Assembly (NCBI GenBank): GCA_000004695.1
Contig: CM000155.2
Span: 576,001-640,000 of the forward strand
DNA from: Dictyostelium discoideum
Taxonomy: Eukaryota
Reading direction: 5' to 3'
DNA: 64,000 nt
The translations under genes were made by a program, and so were the position numbers. The notes beneath the pieces were generated by a model. It ran no database searches. It saw only the letters and a list, made by a program, of their open reading frames with translations, and was not told the DNA's origin. Shown here one piece after another: positions 6,830-57,414 of the stretch; positions within the stretch are counted from its first letter, which is position 1, and the number at the start of each line of letters is the position of its first letter.

Positions 6830-6874
6830 TTTTATTTTTTTATTTTTTTAAATTTTTATTTTTTTTAAATTTTT

Positions 6875-22900: not shown

Positions 22901-22979
22901 CTTATTTAAAAACAGTAATCAAAGATTACTTAAAAAATTTGATTTTTTATTTAATTCAGTAAATATAAAAAAAGAATAA
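19950..22979 (+). CDS. free-standing polyketide-synthase fragment protein (DH-like / degenerate C-MT / KR-like region only; no KS, AT, ER or ACP)
   Basis: 1009-aa uninterrupted ORF in AT-rich DNA. The C-terminal 300 aa carry KR-domain signatures of Dictyostelium type I PKSs (ILITGQSGFVLEIYKWI..., FIMASSVASLFGVNSQCSYSSSCYVIDSLSAYRKSIGLPSICTNYGVLGEAG). The middle resembles a decayed C-methyltransferase (ILDFQGEINSTT..., TPNGHLLLMEF). AT-rich intergenic DNA lies on both sides, so it is not truncated by the window. Confidence 0.6.
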   Translation: MENQRIYNINLDLLKDNTLNGKNNYYPSTYLIEELIKIFQNTDLIIPIFEFKPPFIIDNELEKFYLQTEIIEINSKEYEIKFNFKDNKTNQWNQFSKGNFLLSTNNNYNFNEKEVDYIENLKSKICNFTKVSKDEFINFIDEKTGLKYNGIFNNNIKDCLIGDNCSLLVVSLEGCQNQNLFFNKPLFNIFLSGMLILVDRKCKLNFNKIEGLKYYSPNNLPKDKDQLISEIYIYSKLISSKTISSNSYSASVKVLLPDGTLLFDIDRVEYKSLTSIKPISIEPPNDHMYSVYQQPLNSLIKSPLKFKSKYQNKINDLNHFLNYQDGSTSNYNDFITIQNQIISNIVKEVIKPILNEKILFRILDFQGEINSTTIILEKINSLFGKFPNFQIDIEYTINNKNPPKNSIPIKFDKIFKENNLNNICIVIKDFNLVKDQFKNGENNIESYYDFIIISNLNLNENNLKSLLLQINQLLTPNGHLLLMEFKSKISFNKNNLEKLLIECNYCNDFVIFLDDSTPLLLIHTQKQNIQLFKNISISNDSEQILNNLLFENIIIFGNNNNIDFKLIYKNNENYKSIYQISKINEINEKLITDKSIIYFIKTIDKLLIENFNEITFEYIQINQMIMKLNSKCKHVLLAKDIKGENYLSSSVIGVSRYFDQIPQLELFTIDFDNNSIDSIYNVINELINSKINWWQKEFTIKNNEIYFEIFKKESKFINNIFKSNSYEKNHNEMITKKNYKIVEKYLGNSILITGQSGFVLEIYKWIINYSESVKNIIILSKSKLKWELELLIKKNKHINFIFKSIDVGNTNAMEETINIILKENSNIINIDSIFHFAVEYCTTPDPLEITIKNLEISNCAKTMGAINLHNQSVKRNWKLINFIMASSVASLFGVNSQCSYSSSCYVIDSLSAYRKSIGLPSICTNYGVLGEAGLCSRVQMIQDFTLKLGYEPLPANMVLGALDLQIQNQNIVPLDFILSKLNFNLFKNSNQRLLKKFDFLFNSVNIKKE

Positions 22980-23997
22980 TATATTAAATTAAACATTTTT
23001 TTAGACAAATAAATATTTTTTTTTTTATTGTCTCCAAGATAGAATATTCTGTTTTGGAGACATCTACAGTTATGAAAATTGCATTCATGTTTGATTTTTT
23101 TTTTTTTTTTTTTAGATTTTTTTTTTTTTAATCAATGTTTATCCATTAAAGGAATAGACTGTAATTAATAGGTTTATTTGTGAATTTTAAGTTAAAAAAA
23201 AACAAATAATATTTTGGTTTAAAGAAAAAATTATAATTTAATTTTTTTTTTTTGAAATGTAGCTATTTGTTTGAGATTTAGATTAGTTAAATAAATAAAA
23301 CTAAAATATAGAATTTAATTGATTTGATGAATTAGTCGAAGGATATAAAATTATAAGATATGGTTGGTACTGATTCAGGAATGCAATATACCTTACAAGT
23401 TAATTTCTTCATACAATTCACTTTTTTTTTTTTTTTTTTTTTTTGATATAAATAAACTATTGTAGTATACAATTAGTATGTTATTTTTATTTATTTATTT
23501 TAGGTCGTTTAGTTTTTGTGAATTTAAAATGGTACGTTATTTTAGATTAGGTAATTAATAATTAATTGGTGGTGTAATTGTTGGAATTGATTCATTTGTG
23601 TTTATGCTCCATTCTTTTTTAAATTTTTTGATGGTTTCGGACCATTGGGTTTCTTTTTGTGAGGTTGTTTTTAATTGAGTATTGGTTAAAGTTTGATAAT
23701 GTTCTTGAATATTCCAATCTTATTAACTTGTGCCATTTTGATTTTAATATATCATAATCTAGTGTTGTGTTGTTTATTTGGTTGTCCCAATTGTCAATTG
23801 ATTGAGTTATATAGATGTCAAATAATGATTTGCATAACCATATCCATATTTGGTGAATAACTAATGAGATTATGTTCCAATATGCATGTGTTCTGACTAG
23901 ATCAAGATTTGTGTATATATAATTCCAGTTGAACCTGTATTTTTTATATTGTGCGTTTTCTGCAAAATGAAAATTAATATTGATAGTTGGATCTGGT

Positions 23998-25077
23998 TTA
24001 AATGCTTTGTTGTTTGTGGTTTATAATGAGTGTGTATAATTTTGTTGTTTGGTTTTTTGTTAGTGACCAGTTTTTGTTTCCATTGCAATTTTTATATATA
24101 AAATATTTTAATTTGTCGTGGTTTATGAAGTTGATTGTGTGCTGACAATTGAAAAACAAATGACCATAGGGATCATTATTCATTTCATTGTTGCAAATGG
24201 GGCAAACTTTGTTGTGTAGATGATTAATCGGAAGACATCTAGCATGGAATCTTTGCATTGTATCACGCCCTTTTGGATCTTTTAATTTTTGAATTTTGAC
24301 AAATAGTTGGTCGTATGTGTATTTCCATAATAGTTGTATTGATTGTTGGTGCGAAGTAAGAAGTAGATCTGAATATTTCTTGCCAATATAGTCTTTTGAT
24401 TTACATTGGTGATTGTTGAGTATTGTCGAGTAGATTTCTTTGAGTGTTGGTGGTAGTGGAATATTATTTGTGTTTAATGTTTGAGAGGTTTGATTTTTTA
24501 TTAATATTGGTTGTAGGATTTGAACTTTATCTTTTAGATGTCCAATTTGAGTTGCATAGTTTTCCCATTCTCTTTTGATTTTTATAAGGTATGGAGAAGA
24601 GATTGATTTGTTGATGATTTGATCCATCCAACTTATCATGTATATTGAATTATTTGCCGATTTATGCATTTGTAAAAATCTGTTGTATATCCAAATCTTT
24701 TGAGCAACTTGTCGTAATTGTATATTCCACATACCCCAACCACCTTCTTTTAATGGTTTTAATGATCTATCATAACACATCAAAGGTATTTTTGCACGTG
24801 AATGGATGGTTGATGTGTTATTTTCAATGGAATTGGCATTGAGAGTTGGTGATTCAGAATTTGTGGGAGAATTCATAAACCATGAGATTAATTTATTAAT
24901 TTGAATTTCTTCATCTTTTGTAAATTCTTCAAGGTATGATAAATATGTTATTGGTGATAGTGAGTAGGTGTTTATGATGGTTGTTTTTGTTTTTAATGTT
25001 GTGCCACTAGTTTTCCATAGTACTAATGATTTATTCAATGTTTTCATTGTTTCTGGTAATTTCCATATGTAAACCAT
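23998..25077 (-). CDS. C-terminal part of ORF2 (zinc-knuckle domain), in a different frame from the RT part (frameshifted copy)
   Basis: 359-aa ORF overlaps the end of ORF 25031..27367 by 47 nt. It contains HARCLPINHLHNKVCPICNNEMNNDPYGHLFFNCQHT, which is conserved in the second element in this window. Confidence 0.6.
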   Translation of the reverse strand: MVYIWKLPETMKTLNKSLVLWKTSGTTLKTKTTIINTYSLSPITYLSYLEEFTKDEEIQINKLISWFMNSPTNSESPTLNANSIENNTSTIHSRAKIPLMCYDRSLKPLKEGGWGMWNIQLRQVAQKIWIYNRFLQMHKSANNSIYMISWMDQIINKSISSPYLIKIKREWENYATQIGHLKDKVQILQPILIKNQTSQTLNTNNIPLPPTLKEIYSTILNNHQCKSKDYIGKKYSDLLLTSHQQSIQLLWKYTYDQLFVKIQKLKDPKGRDTMQRFHARCLPINHLHNKVCPICNNEMNNDPYGHLFFNCQHTINFINHDKLKYFIYKNCNGNKNWSLTKNQTTKLYTLIINHKQQSI

Positions 25078-27367
25078 TATGATTAAAGAAATAGCTAAGG
25101 ACTCTTTCTGATTGATCTTTTTTGGTTATTGGTATTCTTTTTGATTGTGGAGTATTGTTTATTATGTGTTTATCAGTGATTTTGTGGGGGTTGATTTCTA
25201 TTATTGCACTTTTGTCAAAATTTAATGATGATGATGTTGAAGCGCAGAAATTATCGAAATGTTTGATTGATTGTTGTTGTTGTTCGTAGTTGATGTTGTA
25301 TGTTGTAGAGTCGTCTGCAAATTGGGTAAATTTGATTTTAATTTGTGGATTGGGTGAAATTGGTAAACCAATTATTGAATTGTCTGCATTTATTGTTCTT
25401 GCTAATATTTCAATTACAATTACAAATAAAGTGGCTTGTTTTACACCTTGTTTTACACCTCTTTTAATATCGAATTTTCTGGTTGTTTTACCATTAATTG
25501 AAATTTTTGCTTGTGAGTCAGATAATAGCTTGTGGATTAAATTTATTAATTTTATTGGTATACCAATATGAATTAATGTTCTTTTAATACTATCGTGAGA
25601 GATAGAATCAAATGCTTTAAAGAAGTCAAATAGTGTGATGATACCAGGGAGGTTTTTAGATTTGAGGTAGTTGATTAAATCATTGATGTTGATGATGTTG
25701 TCTATGATGAATCTGTGGGGTACGAAACCAGTTTGGTTGTTGTTGATGATGAAAGGAAGTATTCTCAGAAGACGTGCATTGATTACTTTTGAGAGGATCT
25801 TGTAATCAGTGTTTAGAAGTGTAATGGGACGACGATTTGATATGAGTAACGGGTTGCCTTTCTTGTATATTGTGTGTATAAGACCTTCGGTGAATTCTGT
25901 TGTGATGTGGTGAGGATTTTCTAGTATATCGTTGAATAATGTAGTGAGAATTGGTTTAACTTGGTTTAAATGATTAATGTAGAATGCATTTGTAACGCCA
26001 TCTGGACCGGGTGATTTGTTGGGGTTACAGGTTTTAATTGCAGCTTCAACTTCATCTTGTATAAATGGTGAGTCTAAACCATTCCAATATTCATTTTTTA
26101 TGATGGGCCATGTGTTTAGCATGAGCTGGTGAGTAATTGGACAACATATTTGTAAGCTATATAGATTTGTGTAGAATTCAACAAACGCATTTTCAATTTG
26201 GTCGGGGTCGGATGTAATGATGTTACCATATTGGATTGATTCAATTTTTGCATCTTTTGATCTTTTGTTTAGTATTGCTGATAGATACTTGCTAGGTATT
26301 TCTCCATTTATATGTTTTTTTAATATGTTTGTGTGGTTTTGATGTAGTTTGTTTTTGTTACATATAATATTGTATTCAGCGATGCATTGTTCTTCAAGAT
26401 GTTTGAATTTTGCTGCTTTTTCTAATAGTATTTGTTTTGCACGTTGAGTTTGTTTGTCTTTGTTATATTGATAGTTTTTTAGAGTTTTTATAATTTTTGA
26501 TTTTACTTTTGACCAGTTTGTAAATTGATTGATTGATGTGTTATTGTGATTAGTTATTAAATGATTGATAATATTGATTGCTTCATGGTCATTTGCAGTA
26601 CCAGGTGATAATATCCATCTTTTCTTATGTTTATTTATTTGAAAAGGTGAAGAAATTGTTGTTGATATTGGATTATGATCTGATAATGAAGATGGAATTT
26701 GGTGGACTTGTGTATATATATTTTCAGGGTCTATTCTATTGTATTGAGTATATATTCTATCTAATCTGTTGCCATGTGTATGAGTTGGAGTGTTTTTAAA
26801 TTCACCTTGATCAATTAGATGGTGTTGGTATGTGTAGGATTGGATAATATCATCTAATAGTGAATTGTCGTTGTGGATACAGTTGAAATCTCCTGCGATA
26901 ATAGATACATGTTGGGATTGGTTTGGTATTGGGTTTGTTGAGTGGTTGTGGAGAAGTGTTTGTAGTGAAGTTGCATATGAATTCTTTTTGATGGTATTAT
27001 TTGATGCTGGTGCGTAAATTCCAAGAATACCAATTGGTAATTGATTTGGAAATATAACGTCTGCTAAAATAGCTCTACCATCAATTGTTGATATGTGTTT
27101 GAGTTTGAGTGTGTTTGGGTTATGGTTAATGATGATTACACCATTTCCTCGTTTGGTGACAGAGATGATGTGATCGGGAAAATCATGTTTAAGTTGTAAT
27201 GGTGATGAATTGAGTTCAGTGAGTATTGAGATTGTTGGACGAGGTGGAAGTTTTGATATAAGTAGTTGTAGTGTGTCAACAGCTTTTTGGTAGGAATTGT
27301 GTTGATTGTTTGGGTTTTCAGTGAATCCTCTACAATTCCATGTTATAAAGTTGATTTTTGAGCTCAT
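25031..27367 (-). CDS. retrotransposon ORF2, AP-endonuclease + reverse transcriptase domains (778 aa)
   Basis: N-terminal EEP-nuclease-like MSSKINFITWNCRGF...IIAGDFNC. RT motifs PGIITLFDFFKAFDSISHD, KRGVKQG, QFADDSTTY. Confidence 0.8.
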   Translation of the reverse strand: MSSKINFITWNCRGFTENPNNQHNSYQKAVDTLQLLISKLPPRPTISILTELNSSPLQLKHDFPDHIISVTKRGNGVIIINHNPNTLKLKHISTIDGRAILADVIFPNQLPIGILGIYAPASNNTIKKNSYATSLQTLLHNHSTNPIPNQSQHVSIIAGDFNCIHNDNSLLDDIIQSYTYQHHLIDQGEFKNTPTHTHGNRLDRIYTQYNRIDPENIYTQVHQIPSSLSDHNPISTTISSPFQINKHKKRWILSPGTANDHEAINIINHLITNHNNTSINQFTNWSKVKSKIIKTLKNYQYNKDKQTQRAKQILLEKAAKFKHLEEQCIAEYNIICNKNKLHQNHTNILKKHINGEIPSKYLSAILNKRSKDAKIESIQYGNIITSDPDQIENAFVEFYTNLYSLQICCPITHQLMLNTWPIIKNEYWNGLDSPFIQDEVEAAIKTCNPNKSPGPDGVTNAFYINHLNQVKPILTTLFNDILENPHHITTEFTEGLIHTIYKKGNPLLISNRRPITLLNTDYKILSKVINARLLRILPFIINNNQTGFVPHRFIIDNIININDLINYLKSKNLPGIITLFDFFKAFDSISHDSIKRTLIHIGIPIKLINLIHKLLSDSQAKISINGKTTRKFDIKRGVKQGVKQATLFVIVIEILARTINADNSIIGLPISPNPQIKIKFTQFADDSTTYNINYEQQQQSIKHFDNFCASTSSSLNFDKSAIIEINPHKITDKHIINNTPQSKRIPITKKDQSERVLSYFFNHNGLHMEITRNNENIE

Positions 27368-28572
27368 ACCTTACTAGGTTTGGCAGCACCAGTATTGACT
27401 GGTTGTGTAGTCAGGGCATTGCTGCTTCTTCTTGTATTTATTGTATTTGGAGTTGGTGCACTTGGTTTGTTTGGTTGAGATTGTAGAGGTTTTTGTGGTA
27501 CAATTGTTGGATCGGTTGGATTGCTCATTGATAATGAGTTTTTCCCGTTATTATTATTTGAAGAATCACTTTTGTGTGAAATTTCATTATTGTTTTGGGA
27601 TTGATTGTTAATATCAAGTGATTCATTTAGTATAGCTTTTGAACCACTATTTTGAAGTGAGTTATTATTGCGATTGGAATTTGCAATTTCGTTGATTGGT
27701 GGGGTGTTAATGTTGTTTTTTGGTGGTTGATTGTTTTTGTTCATGTTTGGGTTTGTGATGGCATTTTTTATAGTTGTTGCCATATCTGCATTTTTTGCAT
27801 GTTGAATTTTGTGTTTAGTGACACTACGTGTTGCAGCTTTGATATATCTTGTGATACCAGATGGTTGTTCGATCTTTTGATCAACAATGTTGTGTGTGTG
27901 ATCAATTAGATGATATGTTATAATGTAGCTTTTAAACGCAACAGCATATGAGTATGTGACAGTAAATGATTCAATTGATGTACAACTGGTGAATTTAGTG
28001 AGGTTGTTTGTAATTGCATCGTTTGCATGTTTGGGTGAGTACGTTTTAATGAATGTTTTAATGATTGCATAATCATTTGATGATATATCGAATCTATAGT
28101 TGAGTTTGTCGATATTTAGTGCAAGTTGGTTTTGAAGGTTGATTATTGAAGTTAATTTATCAACGTTGCAATTTACGAAGGCAGTTGCACCAATTATTTT
28201 GAATGCTGATGGCGACAGTATATCTTCGAAGAGTTTGTGAATGTTTTTGTGAATTTGTTGAATTCTTGTGTCATCTTTTGAGGTTAATTCTTCACGGATG
28301 TGTGGTTGATTAAAGTAACACTTAATGTTGATGGTGTTATTGTTTTTTTCTAAGAAAGAGAGTGGTCTTGTGATTGATGGAGGTGCAATGATATCTAATT
28401 GATTATCAAGTCCTTTGTTTAGTGAGAGTTGGTTTGTTGGGGTTTGTTTTTTAGGTGTGTCGATTTTTGCACTTTTATTTTTTGTTGTTGAGGTTGTGGA
28501 GGTATTATTTGTATTGGTCGTGTTGTTATCTGTATGATTTAACTGTAATTCAGTTGAGTGATCATCAGCCAT
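27364..28572 (-). CDS. retrotransposon ORF1 (402 aa)
   Basis: ORF track entry. Ser/Thr/Asn-rich and basic. Its stop overlaps the ORF2 ATG as ATGA. Confidence 0.7.
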   Translation of the reverse strand: MADDHSTELQLNHTDNNTTNTNNTSTTSTTKNKSAKIDTPKKQTPTNQLSLNKGLDNQLDIIAPPSITRPLSFLEKNNNTINIKCYFNQPHIREELTSKDDTRIQQIHKNIHKLFEDILSPSAFKIIGATAFVNCNVDKLTSIINLQNQLALNIDKLNYRFDISSNDYAIIKTFIKTYSPKHANDAITNNLTKFTSCTSIESFTVTYSYAVAFKSYIITYHLIDHTHNIVDQKIEQPSGITRYIKAATRSVTKHKIQHAKNADMATTIKNAITNPNMNKNNQPPKNNINTPPINEIANSNRNNNSLQNSGSKAILNESLDINNQSQNNNEISHKSDSSNNNNGKNSLSMSNPTDPTIVPQKPLQSQPNKPSAPTPNTINTRRSSNALTTQPVNTGAAKPSKV

Positions 28573-28763
28573 TGTTGAAAAGTATATAGGACGATAGCCC
28601 TTGCTTTAATGAGCAAAAAAAGGGTAAAATTAAGAGGAATGAATGTGGCGGTGAAGATATAACAGTGATTTATTTATTATATGTATAAATTCTCGTTTAT
28701 TTCTTTGTTTTTTCGGTTTTTTTTTCGTTTTTTTCGTAAAAAATATATTTCCCAAAAACAATG

Positions 28764-28843
28764 TGGAAGATGAGGGACTCGAACCCACGACCCCGGAGGA
28801 TAGAGCCTAAATCTATTGTCTTAACCATCTCGACCAATCTTCC
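28764..28843 (-). tRNA. tRNA-Leu (anticodon UAG), class II with long variable arm
   Basis: The reverse complement folds by hand. Acceptor GGAAGAT/ATCTTCC, D arm GTC-GAGATGGTTAA-GAC, anticodon stem ATAGA/TCTAT with loop TTTAGGC, variable arm CCTCCGGGGTC, T arm GTGGG-TTCGAGT-CCCTC (one T-T mismatch). The layout matches human tRNA-Leu-TAG. A T5 terminator lies downstream on the minus strand. Confidence 0.75.
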
Positions 28844-28900: not shown

Positions 28901-29107
28901 ATTTAATTTTCAATATTATTATTATATGTTTGAATTGGCTCAATATCTTTTGATAATTCATTTAAGAAGCCCATCATATACTTGAATCAAGGTTGGAATC
29001 CAATCCTGTTGGCCTTTGGTGTAGAATTGATGATTGGACATATCGATAGAATTGAAACCAGTAAAAAGTTTTTTTTTTTTTTTTTTTGTTGACCTGGAAT
29101 GAGTGGA

Positions 29108-29150
<43 letters not shown>

Positions 29151-29591
29151 TTTAAAATATATTTTTATACACAAATAAAAATGGTAAAGAGGATTAAAAA
29201 AAAAAAAAAAAAAAAATTAAAAATGAAAAAATATTTTTTGGGGTAAAACAAGGGGTGTGAATATCTTAAAATTTTTTTTTTTTTTTTTTGCTAAAAACGA
29301 TCATTTTTACTATTATTTTTTTAATTTTATTACTTGACCGCTTGTGACACAGTAAATAGAGGTCCACAATTGTTTGTAAAGATTTTGTGCAAATTGATAT
29401 ATTCAATATTTCACTGGACAAATAATTGGTAGACCCACTGCGAACCCATGGAAGTTTTGATTTATCATGTAGTTTCATCGTCGTTAGAGTGTATAAAATG
29501 AAATCATTACTATTTTTTATACAACCTTAATTTCGAGAGTCTATGAATGATTTTAATTTTAAAAACTTCATTAAACGTTCATTGAATCAAT

Positions 29592-29687
<96 letters not shown>
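29592..29687. repeat. (GAT)32 microsatellite; in frame with an upstream ATG it would encode ~32 consecutive Met
   Basis: direct read. Confidence 0.9.
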
Positions 29688-29688
<1 letters not shown>

Positions 29689-30323
29689 AGCATTATATCA
29701 TCATCATCATTAAAATTACAATCACTATTAAATAATAATAATAATGATATGTTTTCAATTTATAGTGATAAAAGAGAGAGATGATTGAACAAAAATCCTA
29801 TGAAATTTCAAAACTCAAAACAAAAAAAAATTGTGGTTGTTACTGTCATTACTTAAGCCATTACTATTAATAGTCTTTCTAATTAGTGCAAGAGTATATT
29901 CTAAATGGTTAATTCTATATAGAAACATCATTTTTTCCTTTTTAACTAGTTTAATGTAAGCCAATATTGATCATTATAAATAAAGGAACACACAATTAAT
30001 ATTATATGAATGCTGTAAAGCGTGAATCAAAACTAACTTTATTTTTTTCATTTTTTTCAGTTTTTATAATTTTCGATCGAGGAGTTTCCAACGAAAACTC
30101 TAAAATATATAAAAACAAAATAAATTATTTTAATTATTATTTTAATTATTATTGTTTAATTGTTATTCATTATTATTCTTATTATTATTAGTATTATTAA
30201 TTTTTTTTTTTTTTTTTTTTAATATTGGATTAACAAGATTGATATATGTCCATCTGTGTTAATACGAGTTTTTATTTAATATTTATTTATAGGCTTATCA
30301 TTTAAGCTGAAGGGTTATTTTAA

Positions 30324-33300
30324 TCATATGAATTGATCAAAAGATATAATATTTGGGAGAGATGATTCTGGAATACAATAGTAATTAGCTGTTGTTTTTC
30401 TTAGCTTGATCGTTGAGGTGAGAAGGATCTTAGGATCTTTGAAATTATTATGGTCTTTTGCTGATAAGTTTTTCAGATCTTTTGCTTTTTTGATGTATTC
30501 TAGAGTGGCCAATTTGTGCCATTTCTTTAGAAGGGAGCTGTATGATAATGATTCATTTGTTAAAGGATCTTCACTGTATATTTGATTGCAAATCCAAATC
30601 CAAATGTTGTGGAGGATAAGGGCCATTAGGTTTCTATATGCGAATGATCTGGTTAGATCATAGTCTATTGCTTTATAGTTCCATTCAAAGTATTCTTTGT
30701 GGAATCTGTGGTTGGCGTAATCTGCATTCACTTTTTGATCTTTTTTGGCTGTCGGTGATAATTTTGGAGTTATTCTATTAATGAAATTGTTATTTTGCCT
30801 AATTCTTGTATGGTGCCAGTTTTTACCTTTGCCTGTGGTAATATAGATGAAATTTTTGAGTTTATTTATTTTTATGAATTGTTTTGTTTTCTTGCATGAG
30901 AAGAACAGGTGACCGTATGGGTCTTTGCTCATATCTTCTTTGCAGAGTGGGCATTGTTTGTTGTGAAGATAGTTTATTGGAAGGCATCTGGCATGGAATC
31001 TAAACATTGTGTCTCTTGTTTTAGGGTCTTTTATCTTCAGTATGTTGTTGAAGAGTTGATTATAGCTGTAGCCTCTTAAGTTTAGAGATGATTGGAATTC
31101 CGTTTTAGGGATGGTTGGATTTTGGTCTTGAATTGTGGTATACCATTCTGCCAGTGAAAGTGGTTGTCCATTTTCGTTTTTTATGGATGTGAGATTATTG
31201 TTGAAGATTGCTTTTTTTATTCTTATTTTGTTCCATTCGTCTAAGTTTTCTTTTAGGTATCTGGATGTGAATTTGTTTTTTTGGATCTGATATTCCCAGC
31301 TTTTGTGATGAGATGAGTTTGTTTGTTTGGTTTCTAGTGCTAGGATGAACTGGTTTATGATCCAAAGTTTCTGCGCCAGTTGTCTCAATTCTATATTCCA
31401 AATGTTCCAGCCCCCTACTTTTAGTGGGTATCTTGCTCTTTTGGTTCTCATTAAATTAATAACTTGAAATCCACTAGCATTTTTGTTGTTTGGTGCCGAT
31501 AAAAACCATTCGACTAATTTATTGATTTGGTTTAATTCCTCTTCCTTAAAGTTCTCTACATATGAATAGTAGGTTAATTTAGAGAGTGCGAATGCTTTGA
31601 GGATGTTGGTTTTGGTTTTTATTGTTGAGTCAGTGGTTTTCCATAGTACTAAGGATGATCTTATTGTGTTTAATATTTCTGGCATTTTTCTTGTTATCCC
31701 TTTACCTGTGAAGAAGTATCCCAAGTATCTTTCTGGATTTGTAGATATTGGAATTCTTTGGTTGGTATTGTCTGGGTTGCCTATAAGAATTGATGAAGAT
31801 TTGTCGATGTTTAGTTTTGAGGAAGTGGCTTTGCAAAATGAATTGAAGTGTTGTAGTACTAATTCAAGTTGTTGAGAGTCTGGGACCATTGAAGCCGAGT
31901 CGTCTGCAAAGCTTTGGAATTTCTCTCTGTGGTTGCTGTTGTTTAGAGGAAGGCCAGTAATTCGATCATCTTGTAAAATTTTTCTAGCTAAAGCCTCTAT
32001 TACAAGGACGAACAGTGTGGGTGATAGTGGATCTCCTTGTTTAACTCCTCTTTTGATCTCAAAGGGTATAGTAATTTCAATTCTTGCTTCAGATTTGGTG
32101 AGTAGATTCATTATCAGGTTGATTATATTGGTTGGAATGTTGATGTGTTGTAGTGATCTAAGTATTGAACCGTGTGAGATCGAGTCAAAAGCTTTTTCGA
32201 AATCATATAGTGTAATTATTCCGTTAATTCTTTTATCATTACAATAGTTGATTAATTCGTTCATTGATATGATATTATCTAGAATGAATCTGCCTGGTAC
32301 GAAACCTTTTTGATTGTGGTTGATCACTTTCGTTAGTATTGGGATTATTCTATTGTTTATTAGCTTTGAGTGGATTTTATATATCCAGTTAGCCAGTGTA
32401 ATTGGTCTTCTGTTTTTGATTAGTTCGGGGTCTCCCTTTTTAGGTATCGTGATAATGAGGCCTTCTTTGTAATTTTTGCTAATTAGATGAGGATTTCTTA
32501 GAGTGTCGTTGAATGCTGAGGCCAGTATTGGAGCTAGTTTTTCTTTGTGTGTTATGTAGAATAAGTTTGGAATTCCATCTGGGCCTGGAGATTTGTGTGG
32601 GTTCAATTGTTTTATTACTTCTAGGATCTCTTGTGATGTGAATTCATTTTCAAGGTTGTCCCATGTTGAGTCCCTGGTCACTGTCCAATTTTCCAACATT
32701 TCATAATGAGATGGTGGGTCATCTTCTTTGTAGTCATAAAGATTTGAGTAATATTTTACGTATTCTTCTTCGATCAATTCCTGTTTGTTGATTGTTCTAC
32801 CTTGTGCATCTTTTACTGCGTTGATGGTGAAATCATTGTGTCTTTTCTTGATTCTCGCGGAGATGTACTTGAGTGAGGTTTCTTCGCAATAGTTGTTCAA
32901 TTCTTGTTTAAGTTGTTCTTCTCTTTTTTTAGATTCATTTATTGCTGAAAGGGTTGCGAAGGCTTGGTCTTTAAATTCTGTCTCTAGTAGGGAGATTAGA
33001 TTTTTGATGTTTGCCTTATTGTTGTAGTCATTTTGTTTTTGAAATTCTGTGTATAGTTGTTTTATTTTGTTTAGTAAGCTGTTGAGTTGAGAGAAGGAAA
33101 TAGAGTTATGGTTGGATGACAGCTCCCTTGAATAATCGTTAAGTAGGAAGTCTATTTTCTTAAGCATTATGCTTGAGAGGATTGAGGATTTTTTTAATCT
33201 CCATCTGCGCTTGTTCATCTGTATGTTGGGTAGAGTGAAGGTGGTTGATAGGAAGTTGTGATCTGATAGAGGTATGTCATTAATTTTTGGGGGGATTAGG

Positions 33301-34016
33301 TTCCTTAAGTATAATTGGCTGTAGTTGATTATGCTATTGTTAAGGTATATTCTGTCTAGTCTCCTTTCCAAGATTCTTGTGAGGTTATTGTTTGTGTTGT
33401 GTATCGTTCTTGAGAAGGTGGGTCTTTTATTTAGTTGGTCCATATCCATTAGGTTATTTGAAATTCTGATGGCTTCGATTACTGTGGCCATCTCATCTGG
33501 GGATTGTGTTGTCAAGTTGCCTTGGTCATCATTTGATGTGTGATTGTCATTGAAGTCTAAACAATTGAAGTCGCCTGCTATGATGTCGATGTTTTTTTTA
33601 GGGTTAGACGTTAGGTTGTGGTATTGGTTGTTGAAGTGTTTGTTTAGTGTTGAAGCTAGTATTTTTCTTTTATCAGGTTGGGCCGGGGCGTATATGGCCA
33701 AGATTCTCGTTGTGGTATCTTTTATTAGAATGTCTGATATTATTAGTCTACCTTCTATTATGAATATTGGTGAGAGTTTTATGTTTTGGTTGTTGTGGTT
33801 TAGTATTCCTATTCCGTTGCCTCTTTTGGTTGCGCTAATGATGGAGCCAGGGAATAGCTGGTGTGCTTGTGTTGCGTCGGCGTTGAGTTCATTGACTATG
33901 GTTAGTGCCAATGAGTTTGGGGGGGATTGGGATTTGATAAAGTCTGTTTTGTTTTTGAAGGAGGTGTCAGTGCCCCAACCTCTGACATTCCATTGGTTGA
34001 TTTTGATTACTACCAT
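30324..34016 (-). CDS. retrotransposon ORF2: AP-endonuclease + reverse transcriptase + zinc-knuckle, intact 1230 aa
   Basis: MVVIKINQWNVRGWG...IIAGDFNC (EEP nuclease). RT motifs NGIITLYDFEKAFDSISH, KRGVKQGDPLSPTLFVL, FADDSA. C-terminal CPLC...DPYGHLFFSC. Confidence 0.85.
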   Translation of the reverse strand: MVVIKINQWNVRGWGTDTSFKNKTDFIKSQSPPNSLALTIVNELNADATQAHQLFPGSIISATKRGNGIGILNHNNQNIKLSPIFIIEGRLIISDILIKDTTTRILAIYAPAQPDKRKILASTLNKHFNNQYHNLTSNPKKNIDIIAGDFNCLDFNDNHTSNDDQGNLTTQSPDEMATVIEAIRISNNLMDMDQLNKRPTFSRTIHNTNNNLTRILERRLDRIYLNNSIINYSQLYLRNLIPPKINDIPLSDHNFLSTTFTLPNIQMNKRRWRLKKSSILSSIMLKKIDFLLNDYSRELSSNHNSISFSQLNSLLNKIKQLYTEFQKQNDYNNKANIKNLISLLETEFKDQAFATLSAINESKKREEQLKQELNNYCEETSLKYISARIKKRHNDFTINAVKDAQGRTINKQELIEEEYVKYYSNLYDYKEDDPPSHYEMLENWTVTRDSTWDNLENEFTSQEILEVIKQLNPHKSPGPDGIPNLFYITHKEKLAPILASAFNDTLRNPHLISKNYKEGLIITIPKKGDPELIKNRRPITLANWIYKIHSKLINNRIIPILTKVINHNQKGFVPGRFILDNIISMNELINYCNDKRINGIITLYDFEKAFDSISHGSILRSLQHINIPTNIINLIMNLLTKSEARIEITIPFEIKRGVKQGDPLSPTLFVLVIEALARKILQDDRITGLPLNNSNHREKFQSFADDSASMVPDSQQLELVLQHFNSFCKATSSKLNIDKSSSILIGNPDNTNQRIPISTNPERYLGYFFTGKGITRKMPEILNTIRSSLVLWKTTDSTIKTKTNILKAFALSKLTYYSYVENFKEEELNQINKLVEWFLSAPNNKNASGFQVINLMRTKRARYPLKVGGWNIWNIELRQLAQKLWIINQFILALETKQTNSSHHKSWEYQIQKNKFTSRYLKENLDEWNKIRIKKAIFNNNLTSIKNENGQPLSLAEWYTTIQDQNPTIPKTEFQSSLNLRGYSYNQLFNNILKIKDPKTRDTMFRFHARCLPINYLHNKQCPLCKEDMSKDPYGHLFFSCKKTKQFIKINKLKNFIYITTGKGKNWHHTRIRQNNNFINRITPKLSPTAKKDQKVNADYANHRFHKEYFEWNYKAIDYDLTRSFAYRNLMALILHNIWIWICNQIYSEDPLTNESLSYSSLLKKWHKLATLEYIKKAKDLKNLSAKDHNNFKDPKILLTSTIKLRKTTANYYCIPESSLPNIISFDQFI

Positions 34017-34981
34017 TATGAGATGATATCGATCTCCTCTTGGGAGTCGTTTAGCTGCGGTTTGGATGGTGAAGGGTAGATACTCTCTATGAAGCTCTCA
34101 ATGATTCCTTTCCTTTCTTTTTTGACAGGTGTCTTAGGGGTGGATGGGATGTAAGGGTTGCTTCTGTTTATTGTTGGTGAGAGTTGGGTGACTTCATTGT
34201 TTGAGTGGATTTCCTCGTTCTTGCGTTTATGTGATGGAGGGATGTTTAGTGTCTTCTCTCTGTTTTCCGAGGATGAATGGATGTTAGTGCTTGTTTTGTT
34301 GGCATTGTCTTTTTGGATGGCGTTGGATGTTGTGGTAGTGGTTGTGGTGGGTTTGACAGATTGAGATTCTGCTGGGTTTTTGGGGGGAAGAGGTTGAGAT
34401 GACTTTTTTGCTTGGGCTTTTTTCTCTTGTGTTGATTGTTTATCAGACTGATTGTTTGCTGGGTTGTTTGTTTGGGTGTTAGGAGGATCTGTCATCTCAT
34501 CTTCTAATGGTTCCTCCGTGTTGTTTGTCTCTACTTTCTTGTTTTTCTTTTGTGAGGAGTAGGTTTTGGTGGCCGTTCTGATGGTAAAGTTTGCGATTTC
34601 TGTAATGTGTTGGCCAGATTTCATTTGATCGCCTATTTTGCATTCTATTAGACCGAATACTATGAGGTGGTCGGTGGAGTATATAGTATTGTATATTGCA
34701 TAGGGTATTTCTTCTGCAAAGGCAGTTTTGATGAGGGCGTCCACTATTCCTGCCTTTTCTCTGGGAATTCTTACTCTTCCTGTGAGGACGTGGAAGTCTC
34801 TACTGGAGGTGATGAAGGTTCCCAATTTGCTTCTATCTCTAATGATATTTAGGAGAGATTGTTCGTTTTTAATCATCAGGTGGATCATTTTTCTAGTTCC
34901 TTTGCCTATGTATATCTTGTCGATTGGGATATCGTAGTTTGAGAGTGTTTTTCTCATTTCTTCTAACCCCTTGAGATCCAT
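34016..34981 (-). CDS. retrotransposon ORF1 (321 aa)
   Basis: ORF track entry. Its stop codon shares one nucleotide with the ORF2 ATG (TAATG). Confidence 0.65.
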   Translation of the reverse strand: MDLKGLEEMRKTLSNYDIPIDKIYIGKGTRKMIHLMIKNEQSLLNIIRDRSKLGTFITSSRDFHVLTGRVRIPREKAGIVDALIKTAFAEEIPYAIYNTIYSTDHLIVFGLIECKIGDQMKSGQHITEIANFTIRTATKTYSSQKKNKKVETNNTEEPLEDEMTDPPNTQTNNPANNQSDKQSTQEKKAQAKKSSQPLPPKNPAESQSVKPTTTTTTTSNAIQKDNANKTSTNIHSSSENREKTLNIPPSHKRKNEEIHSNNEVTQLSPTINRSNPYIPSTPKTPVKKERKGIIESFIESIYPSPSKPQLNDSQEEIDIIS

Positions 34982-35278
34982 TTTGGGGAATTCGAGTGTA
35001 ATTGGGTAGAATCCGTTGTTCTTCTCCTAGGTTGAGAGCGCAGTCATGTTCAATATGGTCTCGCAGTATTTGGAGATGTCTTTGAGGCCTATTGATAGTT
35101 TGGGGTAGGTCTCCTTTATCTCTGCTGTTTTTGTGGAGAATTCCTTAATGAAGTTCTCCGATGCCTCGTCCATATGGGTGGAGGGGTTGGCCATTTTAGC
35201 CGCGTCTGCGTAGGAATTCATCTCGATGGGATTGCTTTGAATCGCCGATTTGGTAAGCTAGATCTGCAGATCGCGCCG

Positions 35279-35378
35279 NNNNNNNNNNNNNNNNNNNNNN
35301 NNNNNNNNNNNNNNNNNNNNNNNNNNNNNNNNNNNNNNNNNNNNNNNNNNNNNNNNNNNNNNNNNNNNNNNNNNNNNN
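35279..35378. other. assembly gap (100 N)
   Basis: N run. Confidence 0.95.
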
Positions 35379-35443
35379 TTGAAAAAAACAATCACCCACA
35401 ACAATTTTTTTTTTTGAATATTTCATTTTTCAAATAAAAAAGC

Positions 35444-35488
<45 letters not shown>

Positions 35489-35563
35489 GGAACCAAGTTA
35501 ATTAGAAAATTTCCAGATTTTTAACTTTTTAAAGAAAAATAAAAAAGATAGAAAGAAAATAAA

Positions 35564-36898
35564 ATGAAAATCACAAACAACACCACAAATATTAAGCAAC
35601 ACAAATGCCTACAAAAAATAAGCGAAATTGTGGATAAAACTCAATTAAAAAAAAAACAATTCAAATACGTCATAAACATCAATCACGAACCAGACGATAA
35701 AATAAAAAAAGATTTAGAAAAAAGTTTGGACAAAAAAGATGTTTTAATCAAAAGTAATAATACATTCAAAATTCTCACAGACAGTATTAGTACAGTAATC
35801 TATTTTGTAAATATGTTTGATGCAGAATTAAAAGGACAATTTATAACCACTATAAGACCAAAAAATATGTATACAGATTTTGATTGGTATAAATCACTCA
35901 CAGAAATAGAATGGGTAATAGAAAATGAAGGATGTAAACTAATTAAATCAGAAATTAAAGGCGAAACTCTAATTATCAAAACAGTGAAAAGAGTCGTAGA
36001 AGAATTTGACACTATCATTGAACTAGACAATCTAACATTAATTGGACACTCCAACAAAGGATGGAGAGATCAAACCTCATTACCAGAAAATCAAGAAGAA
36101 AACAAAAATAAAAAACAATCAGATGAACAACAACCACAATCTACATCAGAACAAATACCAAAACAAGGAAAAAGAACAATCATTATCCCACCAATCACAT
36201 CCTCATCTAATGATAAAACATTTATGGCCCTAGATGATACAGCTCAAAAGGTAATAGAAGCATCACTAGAAAACGTAGATGAACTAACAAGAATAGAGAA
36301 TGAGATCAATACACAATCGATAAACAATCAAGAAATTAAAACAAAATCAGAAAAACCTATCGAACCACCATCTCCATACAATACACCAATAAAACAACAC
36401 GGCGAAACAAAGGGACTAACAACGGAAGAAAAACTTAGAGAGGCAAATGATATCTTCGACTTCACCAGCCCAAACACTGATGCAATAAGAAAAATAGAAT
36501 TCCCACTTTCAATCCCTTCAAATCAATGGTTCTTCTCCTCTCCAATAAAACATATCATGAGTTTCAGCCCAACCTATGGTACACCATCGAAAATTATCGA
36601 TTCACCAAGTAAATTGTTAAACACACCAAAAAAGAAACAACAAGACAAAACAAACAAGACCAACAAAACACCAGTCAAACCAAAATTGGGTGAATATGGA
36701 CAAAAAAGCATAAAAACAAAAATGGATGAAGATATAGACAACTTCAACAAGGAAATTCTAAAACAAATCAATAAATCAAAAAACCCCACAAACACACAAG
36801 ACCAACAACACAATGAACAAAGTAAAGATCAGTTAGAAGACAAAATAAACCAGAAACTTCAAAAGGTAGATAAAAATCTACCCCAAATAAAACTATAA
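35564..36898 (+). CDS. TRE5-A-like ORF1 protein (444 aa)
   Basis: ORF track entry. The identical N-terminal 63 codons recur at 37297..37485. Confidence 0.6.
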   Translation: MKITNNTTNIKQHKCLQKISEIVDKTQLKKKQFKYVININHEPDDKIKKDLEKSLDKKDVLIKSNNTFKILTDSISTVIYFVNMFDAELKGQFITTIRPKNMYTDFDWYKSLTEIEWVIENEGCKLIKSEIKGETLIIKTVKRVVEEFDTIIELDNLTLIGHSNKGWRDQTSLPENQEENKNKKQSDEQQPQSTSEQIPKQGKRTIIIPPITSSSNDKTFMALDDTAQKVIEASLENVDELTRIENEINTQSINNQEIKTKSEKPIEPPSPYNTPIKQHGETKGLTTEEKLREANDIFDFTSPNTDAIRKIEFPLSIPSNQWFFSSPIKHIMSFSPTYGTPSKIIDSPSKLLNTPKKKQQDKTNKTNKTPVKPKLGEYGQKSIKTKMDEDIDNFNKEILKQINKSKNPTNTQDQQHNEQSKDQLEDKINQKLQKVDKNLPQIKL

Positions 36899-37152
36899 AG
36901 AAAAACACAATAAGAATAGGTGTTTGGAACGTCCAAGGATCCAACACCATCCAATCTGCCAGCATAATAAACACCGTTTTAGACAACAACAAGCTGGACG
37001 CAGCACTTCTAACTGAAACAAATATAAAAACAAATAAAATTTACTCAATAAATCAACAATATAAAAACAAAATAACACACCACGCACCAATTGATAAAAC
37101 AGGACAAGGGGTGTCACAAATCATCATCAACACCCGCAATAGAACTTCCTAA
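36874..37152 (+). pseudogene. truncated ORF2 (N-terminus of AP-endonuclease domain) in the -1 frame relative to ORF1
   Basis: The open frame KKNTIRIGVWNVQGSNTIQSASIINTVLDNNKLDAALLTETNIK... ends at TAA 37150..37152. This is far too short for a full ORF2. Confidence 0.5.
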
Positions 37153-37194
37153 ACATCTCAAAAAATACAATAATTCACTCAGTACTTTCTATAA

Positions 37195-37253
<59 letters not shown>

Positions 37254-37296
37254 CCAGTTTATTCAGAAAAATTAAAAAAGATAGAAAGAAAATAAA

Positions 37297-37497
37297 ATGA
37301 AAATCACAAACAACACCACAAATATTAAGCAACACAAATGCCTACAAAAAATAAGCGAAATTGTGGATAAAACTCAATTAAAAAAAAAACAATTCAAATA
37401 CGTCATAAACATCAATCACGAACCAGACGATAAAATAAAAAAAGATTTAGAAAAAAGTTTGGACAAAAAAGATGTTTTAATCAAAAAGACCCTGTAA
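37297..37497 (+). pseudogene. 5' fragment of a second ORF1 copy (63 codons) fused to 3'-end sequence
   Basis: Identical to 35564..35752, then it diverges into the repeated 3' unit. Confidence 0.6.
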
Positions 37498-37566
37498 AAA
37501 AAAAAAAAAAATAAAATGAGATCTAGCATCTCAAGGAGAAGCAAATAATAATTGCGTTATCCAATT

Positions 37567-37602
<36 letters not shown>

Positions 37603-37735
37603 GAACCAAAAAAAAAAAAAAAAAAAAAGTAAACTAACCCCTCTTTTAGAGACCCTGTAAAAAACTACAAATAAAATGAGATCTAGCATCTCAAGGAGAA
37701 GCAACTAATAATTGCGTTATCCAATTCAAAAAAAG
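37487..37735 (+). repeat. two tandem ~85-bp 3'-end (C-module-like) units, each followed by oligo(A)
   Basis: AGACCCTGTAAAAAA...TAAAATGAGATCTAGCATCTCAAGGAGAAGCAAMTAATAATTGCGTTATCCAATTCAAAAAAA occurs at 37487..37569 and 37649..37735. Confidence 0.5.
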
Positions 37736-37951
37736 GACTTATTATTAATCCCCATTAAAAAAAGACTTTTAATATGAATAAATATTAAAAAAAAAATGAA
37801 AATGATTGGAAATAAGTTTATTATATATTTATTTAAAGAAACAACTATAAAAAATGTTTAATCAGCTTTTTTTTTAAAATCAGTTTATTTGAAATTTATC
37901 AAATAAAAAAATAAAAACTGGAAATTATTGGAAATTAAGTTTTATTTTAAT

Positions 37952-40504
<2,553 letters not shown>

Positions 40505-42162: not shown

Positions 42163-43497
42163 GAAGTCCAATAGATGATAGAAGGAATACTCCATTACCA
42201 CCACCACAACAACAACCAATTACACCAAACCAACAACAACAACCACAAATACAACAGCATCAACAAATACAGCCACCTCAACAACAGCAACCAATATATA
42301 ACCCTTATCCACCATATCCATATTATCAAACNNNNNNNNNNNNNNNNNNNNNNNNNNNNNNNNNNNNNNNNNNNNNNNNNNNNNNNNNNNNNNNNNNNNN
42401 NNNNNNNNNNNNNNNNNNNNNNNNNNNNNNNTTATCAACCTCCACCAAATCCATATTATTATAAACATCCACCACCAGCACCACATTATGTTCCACCTAA
42501 TCCTTATTATCAAATTCCACAACCCCCACCAGCACCACAACCACCACAACCACCACAACCACCCCAACCACCACAAGCACCTCTACCACCTCAACCACCT
42601 CAACCACCCCAAGCACCTCAACTACCTCAACAACTAATTCCATCACAAAAACAAGAGCATCAAAATATAAGTAGAACGTCAGCTTCAGTAATAGCAGAGG
42701 CAACAGCTGCCTCATCAAATAATCAAAAATTAAACTATCAACCACCACCACCAAGTTATTATCAACATCAACAACAACAACCAAATAATTATCAGCAACA
42801 ACAACAACAACAACAACAATCATCACCATTACCACCACCAAATTATTATTTAAATCCATTATCACAAACTCCAATTGATCCACAAATGGCAAGTACATCA
42901 GCAAATTTAATTGATAGAGAGTTAGAGAATGAACAATTTTATCCACCAATTCAAAGTTTCTCAGCCAATATTTTAGCAAATGGACAAACATTAAGCAATG
43001 TTAATTTTAATAATCAAACCTTGAAGAACATTACCTTTTTAAATAGTACAATATCGGCAAGTCGTTATCAACATACAAGATTCGAAGGTTGTATCTTTCA
43101 AGAATGTAACATCAATAGCAGTTCCTTTATCGAATCTGCATTCATTGATTGTATATTTATGAATTGTAATATCAATGGTTGCGATTTCTCAAAATCAACC
43201 CAAGAGAACTGTTATCATGTCAATAGTGATATCTCCAATTGTAATTTCTTTCAATCCTCTGGTAACAATGTCAAATATGTCGCTGTCACTATGTTAAATA
43301 ATAATTTCGCTCATAGTATTCCTCGTAGTACATTCTGTAGATGCAACCTAACAAATGCTCAATTCTCAAATTGTAATCTCTCAAAAACAAGATTTAAAAT
43401 CTCACAACTCAATTATGCTAATTTTGTCTCTGCTTATTTCGACCTTCCATTAGACCATATCTTTGATCAAAGATCTGAAAGAAAACTTTGTAAATTT

Positions 43498-43503
<6 letters not shown>
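41344..43503 (+). CDS. RING-type + C2HC (TRAF-like) zinc-finger protein with Pro/Gln/Tyr-rich middle and C-terminal pentapeptide-repeat domain; 3 exons: 41344..41364, 41557..41872, 41953..43503 (exon 3 contains assembly gap 42332..42431)
   Basis: Exon 1 MADDGEL ends at the GTATGC donor. Exon 2 encodes LECVICYCPLIDPVEH...CKQCVCTLKSCPICR and CNVCKKETTRKEIKSHVESC. It ends at the ATTA|GTATGT donor (phase 1). Exon 3 follows the acceptor CACAG|AG. Its C-terminus is built from 5-residue repeats (CIFQECNINSSSFIESAFIDCIFMNCNINGCDFSKS...). The frame across the gap cannot be checked. Confidence 0.55.
42332..42431. other. assembly gap (100 N)
   Basis: N run. Confidence 0.95.
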
Positions 43504-48701: not shown

Positions 48702-53217
<4,516 letters not shown>

Positions 53218-57314: not shown

Positions 57315-57414
57315 NNNNNNNNNNNNNNNNNNNNNNNNNNNNNNNNNNNNNNNNNNNNNNNNNNNNNNNNNNNNNNNNNNNNNNNNNNNNNNNNNNNNNN
57401 NNNNNNNNNNNNNN
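57315..57414. other. assembly gap (100 N)
   Basis: N run. Confidence 0.95.

Follow-up and report, generated by a model that had tools for sequence, protein, structure and literature searches.

Introduction

[quoted passage not shown] They insert on the downstream side of tRNA genes, at a distance of 40–150 bp and with the same orientation; TRE5 elements insert ∼50 bp upstream of such genes and face the opposite way (PMC5911963). For Dd_TRE3-A, Table 1 of PMC5006619 gives a consensus of 5229 bp and 67 copies located 14–228 bp 3′ of tRNA genes, of which 13 are full-length and have their ORFs intact; TRE5-A.2 has the structure AB-ORF1-BC (PMC3159450). According to a review, translation of ORF2 in TRE5-A and TRE3-A needs a −1 frameshift (PMC5911963). 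SART1, another non-LTR element, is on record as coupling its two ORFs at UAAUG (PMC3894237, citing Kojima 2005).

Here, a TRE3 copy on chromosome 6 of Dictyostelium discoideum AX4 (element 2; 30201–35278, minus strand) is compared with these systems. All positions are those of the window, the whole 64 000-nucleotide stretch of DNA that was analysed. We read element 2 as the DDB_G0291620-bearing genomic copy of a TRE3 non-LTR retrotransposon (L1 clade), most likely of subfamily TRE3-A, with a decayed ORF1 and probably non-autonomous; a probability of roughly 0.85 is attached to this reading. The TRE3 family, its tRNA-gene targeting and its copy numbers are already published and the ORF2 of element 2 is already a named gene model. 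Element 2 is an ordinary decaying copy, of little import beyond its correct annotation.

Sequences used for comparison

Six intact sister copies (loci L007 and L013–L017) were taken from another D. discoideum assembly. Each is 5224 bp long, or 5231 bp counting the 5′ A-run, and all six carry an ORF1 of 417 aa, an ORF2 of 1234 aa and the junction TAATG. With ARAGORN a tRNA gene was found upstream in the same orientation, 65–105 bp from the 5′ end, at five of the six copies; none was called at L015. Target duplications of 8–13 bp were readable at five copies (L013–L017). Insertion proceeds by target-primed reverse transcription at 65–105 bp downstream of a same-orientation tRNA gene, with a poly(A) tail and a duplication of 8–13 bp left behind, as seen in the sister copies.

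At 90% identity the clusters comprised 79 sequences for ORF2 and 37 for ORF1, contributed by D. discoideum and D. citrinum; the other two TRE3-like ORF2 clusters had 13 and 14 members.

Identity and extent of element 2

The following features of the element were located, all on the minus strand.

30201..30220, minus strand: poly(A) tail at the 3′ end of element 2, 20 nt, read directly
30221..30323, minus strand: 3′ UTR, 103 nt, aligning with the 3′ UTR of the six full-length sister copies
30324..34016, minus strand: ORF2, 1230 codons, open (1234 in intact copies)
30894..30953, minus strand: CX2CX10HX4C zinc-knuckle motif, ORF2 residues 1022–1041, conserved in element 1
31716..32447, minus strand: reverse transcriptase domain, residues 524–767, Pfam RVT_1, with FADD at residue 703
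32073..32076, minus strand: point at which 12 nt encoding NGRT have been lost in frame from the RT domain, just upstream of RGVKQGDPLSP
33252..34016, minus strand: AP-type endonuclease region, ORF2 residues ∼1–255, weak PF03372 match plus motifs
34014..34018, minus strand: TAATG, ORF1 stop and ORF2 start with one base in common, read directly and the same in the six intact copies and the consensus
34016..35221, minus strand: true ORF1, 401 codons (417 in intact copies), interrupted by TAG at 35027–35029
35222..35278, minus strand: visible remnant of the 5′ UTR, 57 nt, aligned to L007 and L013–L017

Residues 176–1230 of ORF2 match DDB_G0291620 of strain AX4 at 100%, so element 2 is already annotated and belongs to a known family. 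Gene models of this family that begin ORF2 at an internal Met (1055–1059 aa) omit the first 175 codons, which contain most of the endonuclease region. Over its length, UTRs and poly(A) included, the element is 98.4% identical in DNA to young mobile copies and is a somewhat older insertion than these. No LTRs or terminal repeats were found in a self-comparison of the window; the 3′ end of element 2 is a 20-nt A run, and the conserved end motif of the 3′ UTR, CAATCTTGTTAATCCAATATT, has its last base at 30221.

The two-ORF architecture and the ORF2 domain order that define TRE3 were both found in element 2. The letter A is the most likely one, judged by element length and abundance: the family measures 5224–5231 bp beside the published 5229 bp, and its ORF2 cluster is the largest of the TRE3-like clusters. 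Exact-protein look-ups of the ORF2 and ORF1 of element 2, DDB_G0291620 and the flanking 1009-aa ORF returned no record, and the supplement of PMC5006619 contains no TRE3 sequences. A search of papers and supplements for DDB_G identifiers and ‘TRE3-A ORF’ labels returned solely the unrelated DDB_G0291686 (TRE3-B ORF2), which was absent among the cluster members listed. Elsewhere in the window, a segmental duplication between 15–16 kb and 42–43 kb, which are alike in composition, was ruled out by self-BLAST and protein comparison.

The element had been recognized in an earlier note, made from the window alone, as a distinct second TRE3-like element, and it is indeed a TRE3-type non-LTR retrotransposon separate from its neighbour, element 1 (23421–28733). 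Of the extent then given, 30201–35278, the poly(A) end at 30201–30220 stands; position 35278 is the edge of an assembly gap and not the end of the element. Element 1 is TRE3-B-type and clusters with the GenBank ‘pol’ entry AAD43057.1. It is ∼5293 bp long (published TRE3-B, 5279 bp) and resembles element 2 in architecture, orientation and targeting and in an overlap of its ORFs at the stop/start (ATGA), whereas its ORF1 is unrelated in sequence and a frameshift and a stop disrupt its ORF2. In other assemblies its ORF1 was found in short Logan contigs only. Protein identity between the two elements had been put at about 30%; the ORF2 values are higher, with 39% identity in the first 778 aa and 43% in the C-terminal piece. 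As had been claimed, two TRE3 subfamilies are neighbours here, and the supposed hotspot is explained by tRNA genes.

The 5′ end and the assembly gap

Upstream of element 2 the sequence is interrupted, and a second retrotransposon lies beyond the interruption.

35279..35378, no strand: assembly gap, a run of 100 N
35379..37598, plus strand: TRE5-A.2-type element, head-to-head with element 2, with C-module and poly(A)
35450–35753 and 37197–37486, plus strand: duplicated B-module, within 35379..37598
35564–36898, plus strand: 444-aa ORF1 of the TRE5-A.2-type element, within 35379..37598

About 117 nt of 5′ UTR that are present in full-length copies are missing from element 2; in TRE3-A this stretch is expected to begin (A)nCCGCACCGCGATCAAGAGG. 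On the far side of the gap, TRE5-A sequence begins at the edge (35381), ∼210 bp into that element. Element 1 starts ∼30 bp downstream of a tRNA-Leu(UAG) gene. The end of element 2 lies 1358 bp upstream of the same gene, so that the element must have had another target, probably hidden in the gap; no tRNA gene was found beside its 5′ end in the assembled sequence, the 5′ junction falling within the N run. Taken with the insertion preferences and the TRE5-A.2 structure described in PMC5911963 and PMC3159450, the arrangement suggests that three things are hidden in the gap: the 5′ end of the TRE3 element, a tRNA gene on the minus strand and the ∼200-bp A-module of TRE5-A.2. The target of element 2 would then be a tRNA gene that is probably concealed between TRE3-A and TRE5-A.2, flanked by both. 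A contig of a second, independent assembly that carries the neighbouring DDHD gene (JBTAPE010000029.1) ends at about window position 37587, at the TRE5-A boundary.

The ORF1/ORF2 junction and translation of ORF2

The junction reads ...ATC TCA TAA/ATG GTA..., with one A common to stop and start. The one-nucleotide overlap in TAATG that had been pointed out earlier was confirmed, and each of the six intact sister copies has kept it; in P0003 (locus L018), a divergent relative, the region is too degenerate for comparison.

Judging from the anatomy of the family, a single transcript carries both ORFs, an ORF1 of 417 aa and an ORF2 of 1234 aa with endonuclease region, reverse transcriptase and CCHC knuckle. 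Two ways of producing the ORF2 protein have to be weighed. We favour termination–reinitiation or independent initiation at the AUG of UAAUG, which would yield ORF2 as a protein of its own and not as a −1 frameshift fusion. We tentatively suggest that stop/start reinitiation may serve the whole TRE3-A family, as well as the TRE3-B type with its ATGA, in place of the reviewed −1 frameshift; this would be an amoebozoan counterpart of the SART1 type of coupling without obvious RNA structure. The suggestion concerns the TRE3-A family and not element 2 in particular.

Programmed −1 ribosomal frameshifting, by which ORF2 would be made as an ORF1–ORF2 fusion, is the mechanism stated as a requirement for TRE5-A and TRE3-A in PMC5911963, and the geometry would permit it: the frame of ORF2 is −1 to that of ORF1 and is free of stops over the 27 codons that precede the AUG. 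Those 27 codons contain no canonical X XXY YYZ slippery site, however, and no stable structure is predicted around or downstream of UAAUG, where the fold of 33900–34040 was no stabler than those of shuffled sequences (z = +1.08). The AUG also sits exactly at the stop in 7/7 copies and element 1 has the analogous ATGA overlap. Frameshifting is considered unlikely on these grounds. The review's statement and the negative fold, for their part, weigh against reinitiation of the SART1 kind. The conserved UAAUG offers a cheap and reasonable target for the study of ORF2 translation in non-LTR elements.

ORF1 is interrupted and ORF2 is open

A TAC to TAG change places a premature stop at codon 65 of ORF1, which is Tyr65 in other copies. 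The earlier note had described an extra ORF (35027..35221) in the 5′ UTR. An ORF of 64 codons does exist there, yet it is no separate frame: it represents the first 64 codons of ORF1, because the two share a frame, are only a single TAG apart and correspond to a continuous 417-aa ORF1 in the relatives. Element 2 is to be scored as ORF1-defective, since the supposed upstream ORF is the cut-off head of ORF1. Downstream of the stop, the remainder of ORF1 (34016–34981; 321 aa, starting at Met81) is still open. Relative to the six sister copies, ORF1 has also lost 48 nt (16 codons) in frame, 45 nt of them around position 34475 and the other 3 nt around 34490. P0076–P0079 retain both Tyr65 and the 15-aa segment. 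No recognisable domain was found in the family-specific, 417-aa ORF1. The 321-aa product starting at Met81 might keep some function. The TAG lies in a repeat beside an assembly gap, where a sequencing or assembly error is possible.

ORF2 had been described as an uninterrupted frame of 1230 aa with APE, RT and zinc-knuckle domains; retranslation agreed with the former, and the RVT_1 match and the motifs with the latter. Pfam RVT_1 matched with E = 1.7e-32 and human L1 ORF2p with E = 4.7e-46. The match to Exo_endo_phos (PF03372) at residues 9–253 was weak (E = 0.0021, under the gathering score), and the endonuclease hallmarks WNVRG, NEL, GDFN, RLDRI and SDH were seen. Two changes affect the RT domain. 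The residues NGRT, lost in element 2 relative to the six sister copies, are retained by P0001, P0002, P0003 and element 1, and human L1 ORF2p also has residues there. Close to this deletion, at 32385, Cys544 is replaced by Trp; the cysteine is kept in P0001, P0002 and P0003, and C544W was absent from all four ORF2-bearing relatives compared, element 1 being the fourth.

Competence of element 2

The earlier note had put element 2 forward as a candidate retrotransposition-competent copy. The codon-65 stop and 16-codon loss in ORF1, the 4-aa deletion and Cys-to-Trp change in ORF2 and the unassembled 5′ end speak against this, and the full-length (417-aa), stop-free ORF1 by which competence was judged is lacking. 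Judging from its reading frames, element 2 is probably not autonomous, because ORF1 carries a nonsense codon at position 65 and both ORFs have in-frame deletions. At most, it might serve as a source of the ORF2 protein or undergo mobilisation in trans.

Autonomous mobility would require that the 321-aa ORF1 from Met81, or readthrough of the stop, suffices and that ORF2 is fully active. The open ORF2 with all of its catalytic motifs and the intact TAATG are what such an element would have, and of the 20 ORF2 substitutions private to element 2 with respect to the six sister copies 14 are synonymous, which points to a lineage under selection until recently. On the other hand, all intact copies examined have a 417-aa ORF1 that starts 80 codons further upstream, element 2 has lost codons from ORF1 in addition to the TAG, the four missing RT residues are those retained from P0001 to human L1, and only 57 nt of the 5′ UTR are visible, the promoter region lying inside the gap. 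Autonomy is therefore improbable.

Still less probable is that the ORF1 stop and the small deletions reflect misassembly of a multi-copy repeat and that the true copy is intact. Element 2 does abut the 100-N gap of AX4, and the independent assembly, too, is broken at this cluster of repeats (at ∼37587). Against this, coherent lineage-specific substitutions, many of them common to P0077 and P0002, run along the full length of the element and argue against a chimera, and the AX4 protein DDB_G0291620 has the same 4-aa deletion and the same Trp. The annotation of DDB_G0291620 and its long open ORF might suggest domestication, in which selection for a function in the host cell would have preserved the frame, but this is hardly credible given the 98.4% identity to many mobile copies up to and including the UTRs and poly(A), the position within a typical TRE cluster and a young age that explains the open frame.

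Comparison with known systems

A decayed, probably non-autonomous TRE3-A copy is the preferred reading of element 2. TRE3-A (formerly Tdd-3) of D. discoideum is its closest described relative: both have two ORFs, an ORF2 in the order endonuclease, RT and zinc finger, and a poly(A) tail, and the published 5229-bp element and the 5224–5231-bp family of element 2 are each the most abundant TRE3. Element 2 differs from TRE3-A in its ORF1 nonsense codon and 48-nt loss and its 12-nt loss in ORF2, and neither its 5′ end nor the tRNA gene that it targeted is assembled.

SART1 of Bombyx mori is an APE-type non-LTR element with UAAUG between ORF1 and ORF2, like TRE3-A. The two differ in clade and host, and the likeness is one of sequence; coupling in SART1 is reported to depend on downstream RNA structure, whereas none is predicted in element 2. 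Human L1 has an intergenic spacer in place of the overlapping ORFs of TRE3, its ORF1p is unrelated to TRE3 ORF1 and, unlike TRE3, it does not target tRNA genes. Its ORF2p nevertheless aligns with the ORF2 of element 2 over ∼500 residues of the RT and its flanks, in the same domain order and with a C-terminal Cys/His motif.

Structure of the element

A non-LTR retrotransposon (element 2) was located on the minus strand of the AT-rich D. discoideum window at 30201-35278. Its parts were as follows.

Features of element 2
35278-35222, minus, visible part of the 5' UTR (57 nt)
35221-35027, minus, 64-codon ORF
34981-34016, minus, 321-codon ORF (ORF1 as listed)
34016-30324, minus, ORF2 (1230 codons)
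3' of ORF2, before the poly(A), minus, 3' UTR (103 nt)
30220-30201, minus, poly(A) (20 nt)

Element 2 codes for an endonuclease, a reverse transcriptase and a zinc knuckle and ends in a poly(A) tail. The reverse transcriptase of ORF2 gave a strong match to Pfam RVT_1 (E=1.7e-32), and ~500 residues could be aligned with solved human LINE-1 ORF2p structures (E=4.7e-46). The Pfam endonuclease match was weak (E=0.0021, under the curated cut-off); the hallmarks WNVRG, NEL, GDFN, RLDRI and SDH were present, together with a FADD box and a CX2CX10HX4C motif. At the junction (ATC TCA TAA/ATG GTA) one A is common to the ORF1 stop and the ORF2 start. The raw observations of the earlier note (an ORF2 open over 1230 codons, the reverse transcriptase and the TAATG overlap) were correct on re-examination; its observation was partly confirmed overall and its interpretation partly supported.

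ORF1 defect and other changes

The 64-codon ORF, previously taken for an extra ORF in the 5' UTR, was found to share one reading frame with ORF1; nothing but one TAG (35029-35027) and then 15 sense codons lies between it and the listed ORF1 start. When the read-through ORF1 was used as the query in a database search, D. discoideum proteins matched over 100% of its length; a 417-aa match has the same MNSYADAAK start and carries Tyr at the position of the stop.

Six full-length sister copies from D. discoideum assembly GCA_054883475.1 (loci L007 and L013-L017) were used for comparison, with their consensus as the reference. All six have a 417-aa ORF1, a 1234-aa ORF2 and an identical TAATG junction. 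Relative to the consensus, element 2 carries TAC>TAG at codon 65 of ORF1, in-frame deletions of 3 nt and 45 nt in ORF1 and one of 12 nt in ORF2, and 80 substitutions, 53 of which are absent from all six copies. The 12-nt deletion removed NGRT directly before the conserved RGVKQGDPLSP motif; the residues at this site are kept in the related ORF2 proteins P0001, P0002 (the closest relative) and P0003 (more distant), in the neighbouring TRE3-like element 1 and in human L1. A Cys>Trp change at ORF2 residue 544 is absent from P0001, P0002 and P0003. Synonymous changes make up much of the private set (27 versus 16 non-synonymous), and several ORF1 changes are shared with P0077 and P0002; element 2 therefore derives from a sublineage that differed slightly and was under selection. 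The TAG and the deletions are specific to element 2.

Irregularities typical of non-LTR insertion were seen among the sister loci: in L007 (7780-7830) ~45 nt of TRE3-A 3' terminus, with an A-run of their own, lie between the tRNA gene and the full-length copy; in L014 (~6810-6860) the opening ~26 nt are present twice at the 5' end; and in L016 (12245-15254) full-length copies stand in tandem.

Family, annotation and activity

ORF2 residues 176-1230 were 100% identical to DDB_G0291620 (XP_635332.1; strain AX4, 3.60-Mb chromosome), so element 2, a member of a known family, is already in the reference annotation, where its model begins at an internal Met. In many of the ORF2 models annotated for this family (DDB_G0291620, P0001 and others; 1055-1059 aa) the start is likewise Met 176, and the first 175 codons, which carry most of the endonuclease region, are left out; the precomputed Pfam lists of the clusters therefore show RVT_1 only.

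The 90%-identity clusters of the family held 79 ORF2 and 37 ORF1 sequences, and the other two TRE3-like clusters 13 and 14. ORF1 and ORF2 proteins from assemblies labelled Dictyostelium citrinum fell into the 90%-identity clusters of the element 2 family (P0085, P0099). The intact sister copies measure 5224 bp (5231 bp counting the 5' A-run). Published consensus lengths are 5229 bp for TRE3-A (67 copies, 13 intact), 5279 bp for TRE3-B and 4734 bp for TRE3-C (PMC5006619 Table 1). Element 2 was assigned to TRE3-A on length and abundance, not on a named reference sequence, and element 1 (~5293 bp; clustering with the GenBank 'pol' entry AAD43057.1) to TRE3-B on length alone. Their ORF2 proteins are 39-43% identical, above the ~30% first estimated. 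ORF2 of element 1 is interrupted twice, by a frameshift (near 25031-25077) and by a stop codon (23998) past which homologous coding sequence continues.

Five copies (L013-L017) are fully intact, encode an identical 417-aa ORF1 and show 99.65-99.92% mutual identity, which implies that TRE3-A was recently active, and very recently amplified, in the GCA_054883475.1 strain. Element 2, put forward earlier as a candidate retrotransposition-competent copy, is 98.4% identical to the intact copies, and its ORF1 is broken; it is a poor candidate for an autonomous master element, and the most fitting reading is a copy in decay. ORF2 protein might still be made from it, or it might be moved in trans in the way that TRE5-A.2 is (PMC3159450).

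Assembly gap and target site

Neighbourhood of element 2 in the window
19950-22979, plus, host ORF, polyketide-synthase-like piece with KR domain
23421-28733, minus, element 1
28763-28843, tRNA-Leu(UAG)
29543-29713, plus, mechanical ORF (~31-Met-codon run) from a long (ATG)n/(CAT)n repeat at ~29590-29700
35279-35378, run of 100 N
35379-37598, plus, TRE5-A.2-type element with A31 tail; TRE5-A sequence from 35381, poly(A) ending near 37598
37640-37745, further short piece of C-module carrying a separate A-run; probably a tandem TRE5 insertion with severe 5' truncation
37952-40504, minus, host ORF, DDHD-domain protein
42175-43503, plus, host ORF, pentapeptide-repeat protein, spanning one N gap

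The upper limit first given for element 2 is merely the edge of the N run 35279-35378. Full-length copies start (A)7CCGCACCGCGATCAAGAGG..., ~117 nt upstream of the point where element 2 sequence resumes. The window contains four runs of exactly 100 N (35279-35378, 42332-42431, 51337-51436 and 57315-57414), which are assembly-gap placeholders; the first has a retroelement on either side. A contig of an independent assembly, JBTAPE010000029.1, also ends at this repeat cluster (~window 37587), so the cluster resists assembly.

In five of the six sister copies ARAGORN called an upstream tRNA gene that points the same way as the element and lies 65-105 bp from its 5' end (none was called for L015), and target-site duplications of 8-13 bp were readable on both sides of L013-L017. 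This tRNA-proximal insertion with target duplications shows the signature of target-primed reverse transcription. For element 2, whose 5' side is the N gap, no tRNA gene was visible next to that end. The tRNA-Leu(UAG) gene lies 1358 bp past its poly(A), and element 1 starts ~30 bp downstream of that gene, which is the target of element 1, not of element 2. Two segments (28929-29060 and 29583-29749) of the interval from tRNA-Leu(UAG) to the poly(A) of element 2 are weakly similar (70-73%) to sequence close to a tRNA-Val gene at locus L002; they may represent an old, degenerate repeat.

Directly across the gap, head-to-head with element 2, the plus-strand element shows a 444-aa ORF1, a duplicated B-module, a C-module and a poly(A), the same AB-ORF1-BC structure as non-autonomous TRE5-A.2 (PMC3159450); measured against other TRE5-A loci, it lacks its first ~210 bp, which fall into the gap. 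By published rules, TRE5 elements are oriented against the tRNA gene and placed ~50 bp upstream of it, and TRE3 elements share its orientation and are placed 40-150 bp downstream (PMC5911963); both types occur at 13% of tRNA genes (PMC5006619). The head-to-head arrangement, read with these rules, strongly suggests that a minus-strand tRNA gene is hidden in the gap.

Translation of ORF2

A review states that ORF2 is made via a -1 frameshift (PMC5911963); against this, no canonical slippery heptamer was found in the 27 codons of open ORF2 frame upstream of the AUG. Translation of ORF2 would instead begin at the AUG within UAAUG, whether through termination-reinitiation or through ribosomes initiating there directly. 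This overlap is unchanged in seven copies (element 2 and the six sister copies), and element 1 has an equivalent ATGA. No stable RNA structure was predicted near the element 2 junction (z=+1.08), which opposes a strict analogy with the non-LTR element SART1; the pentanucleotide UAAUG that drives coupling there (PMC3894237) is identical to the element 2 junction.
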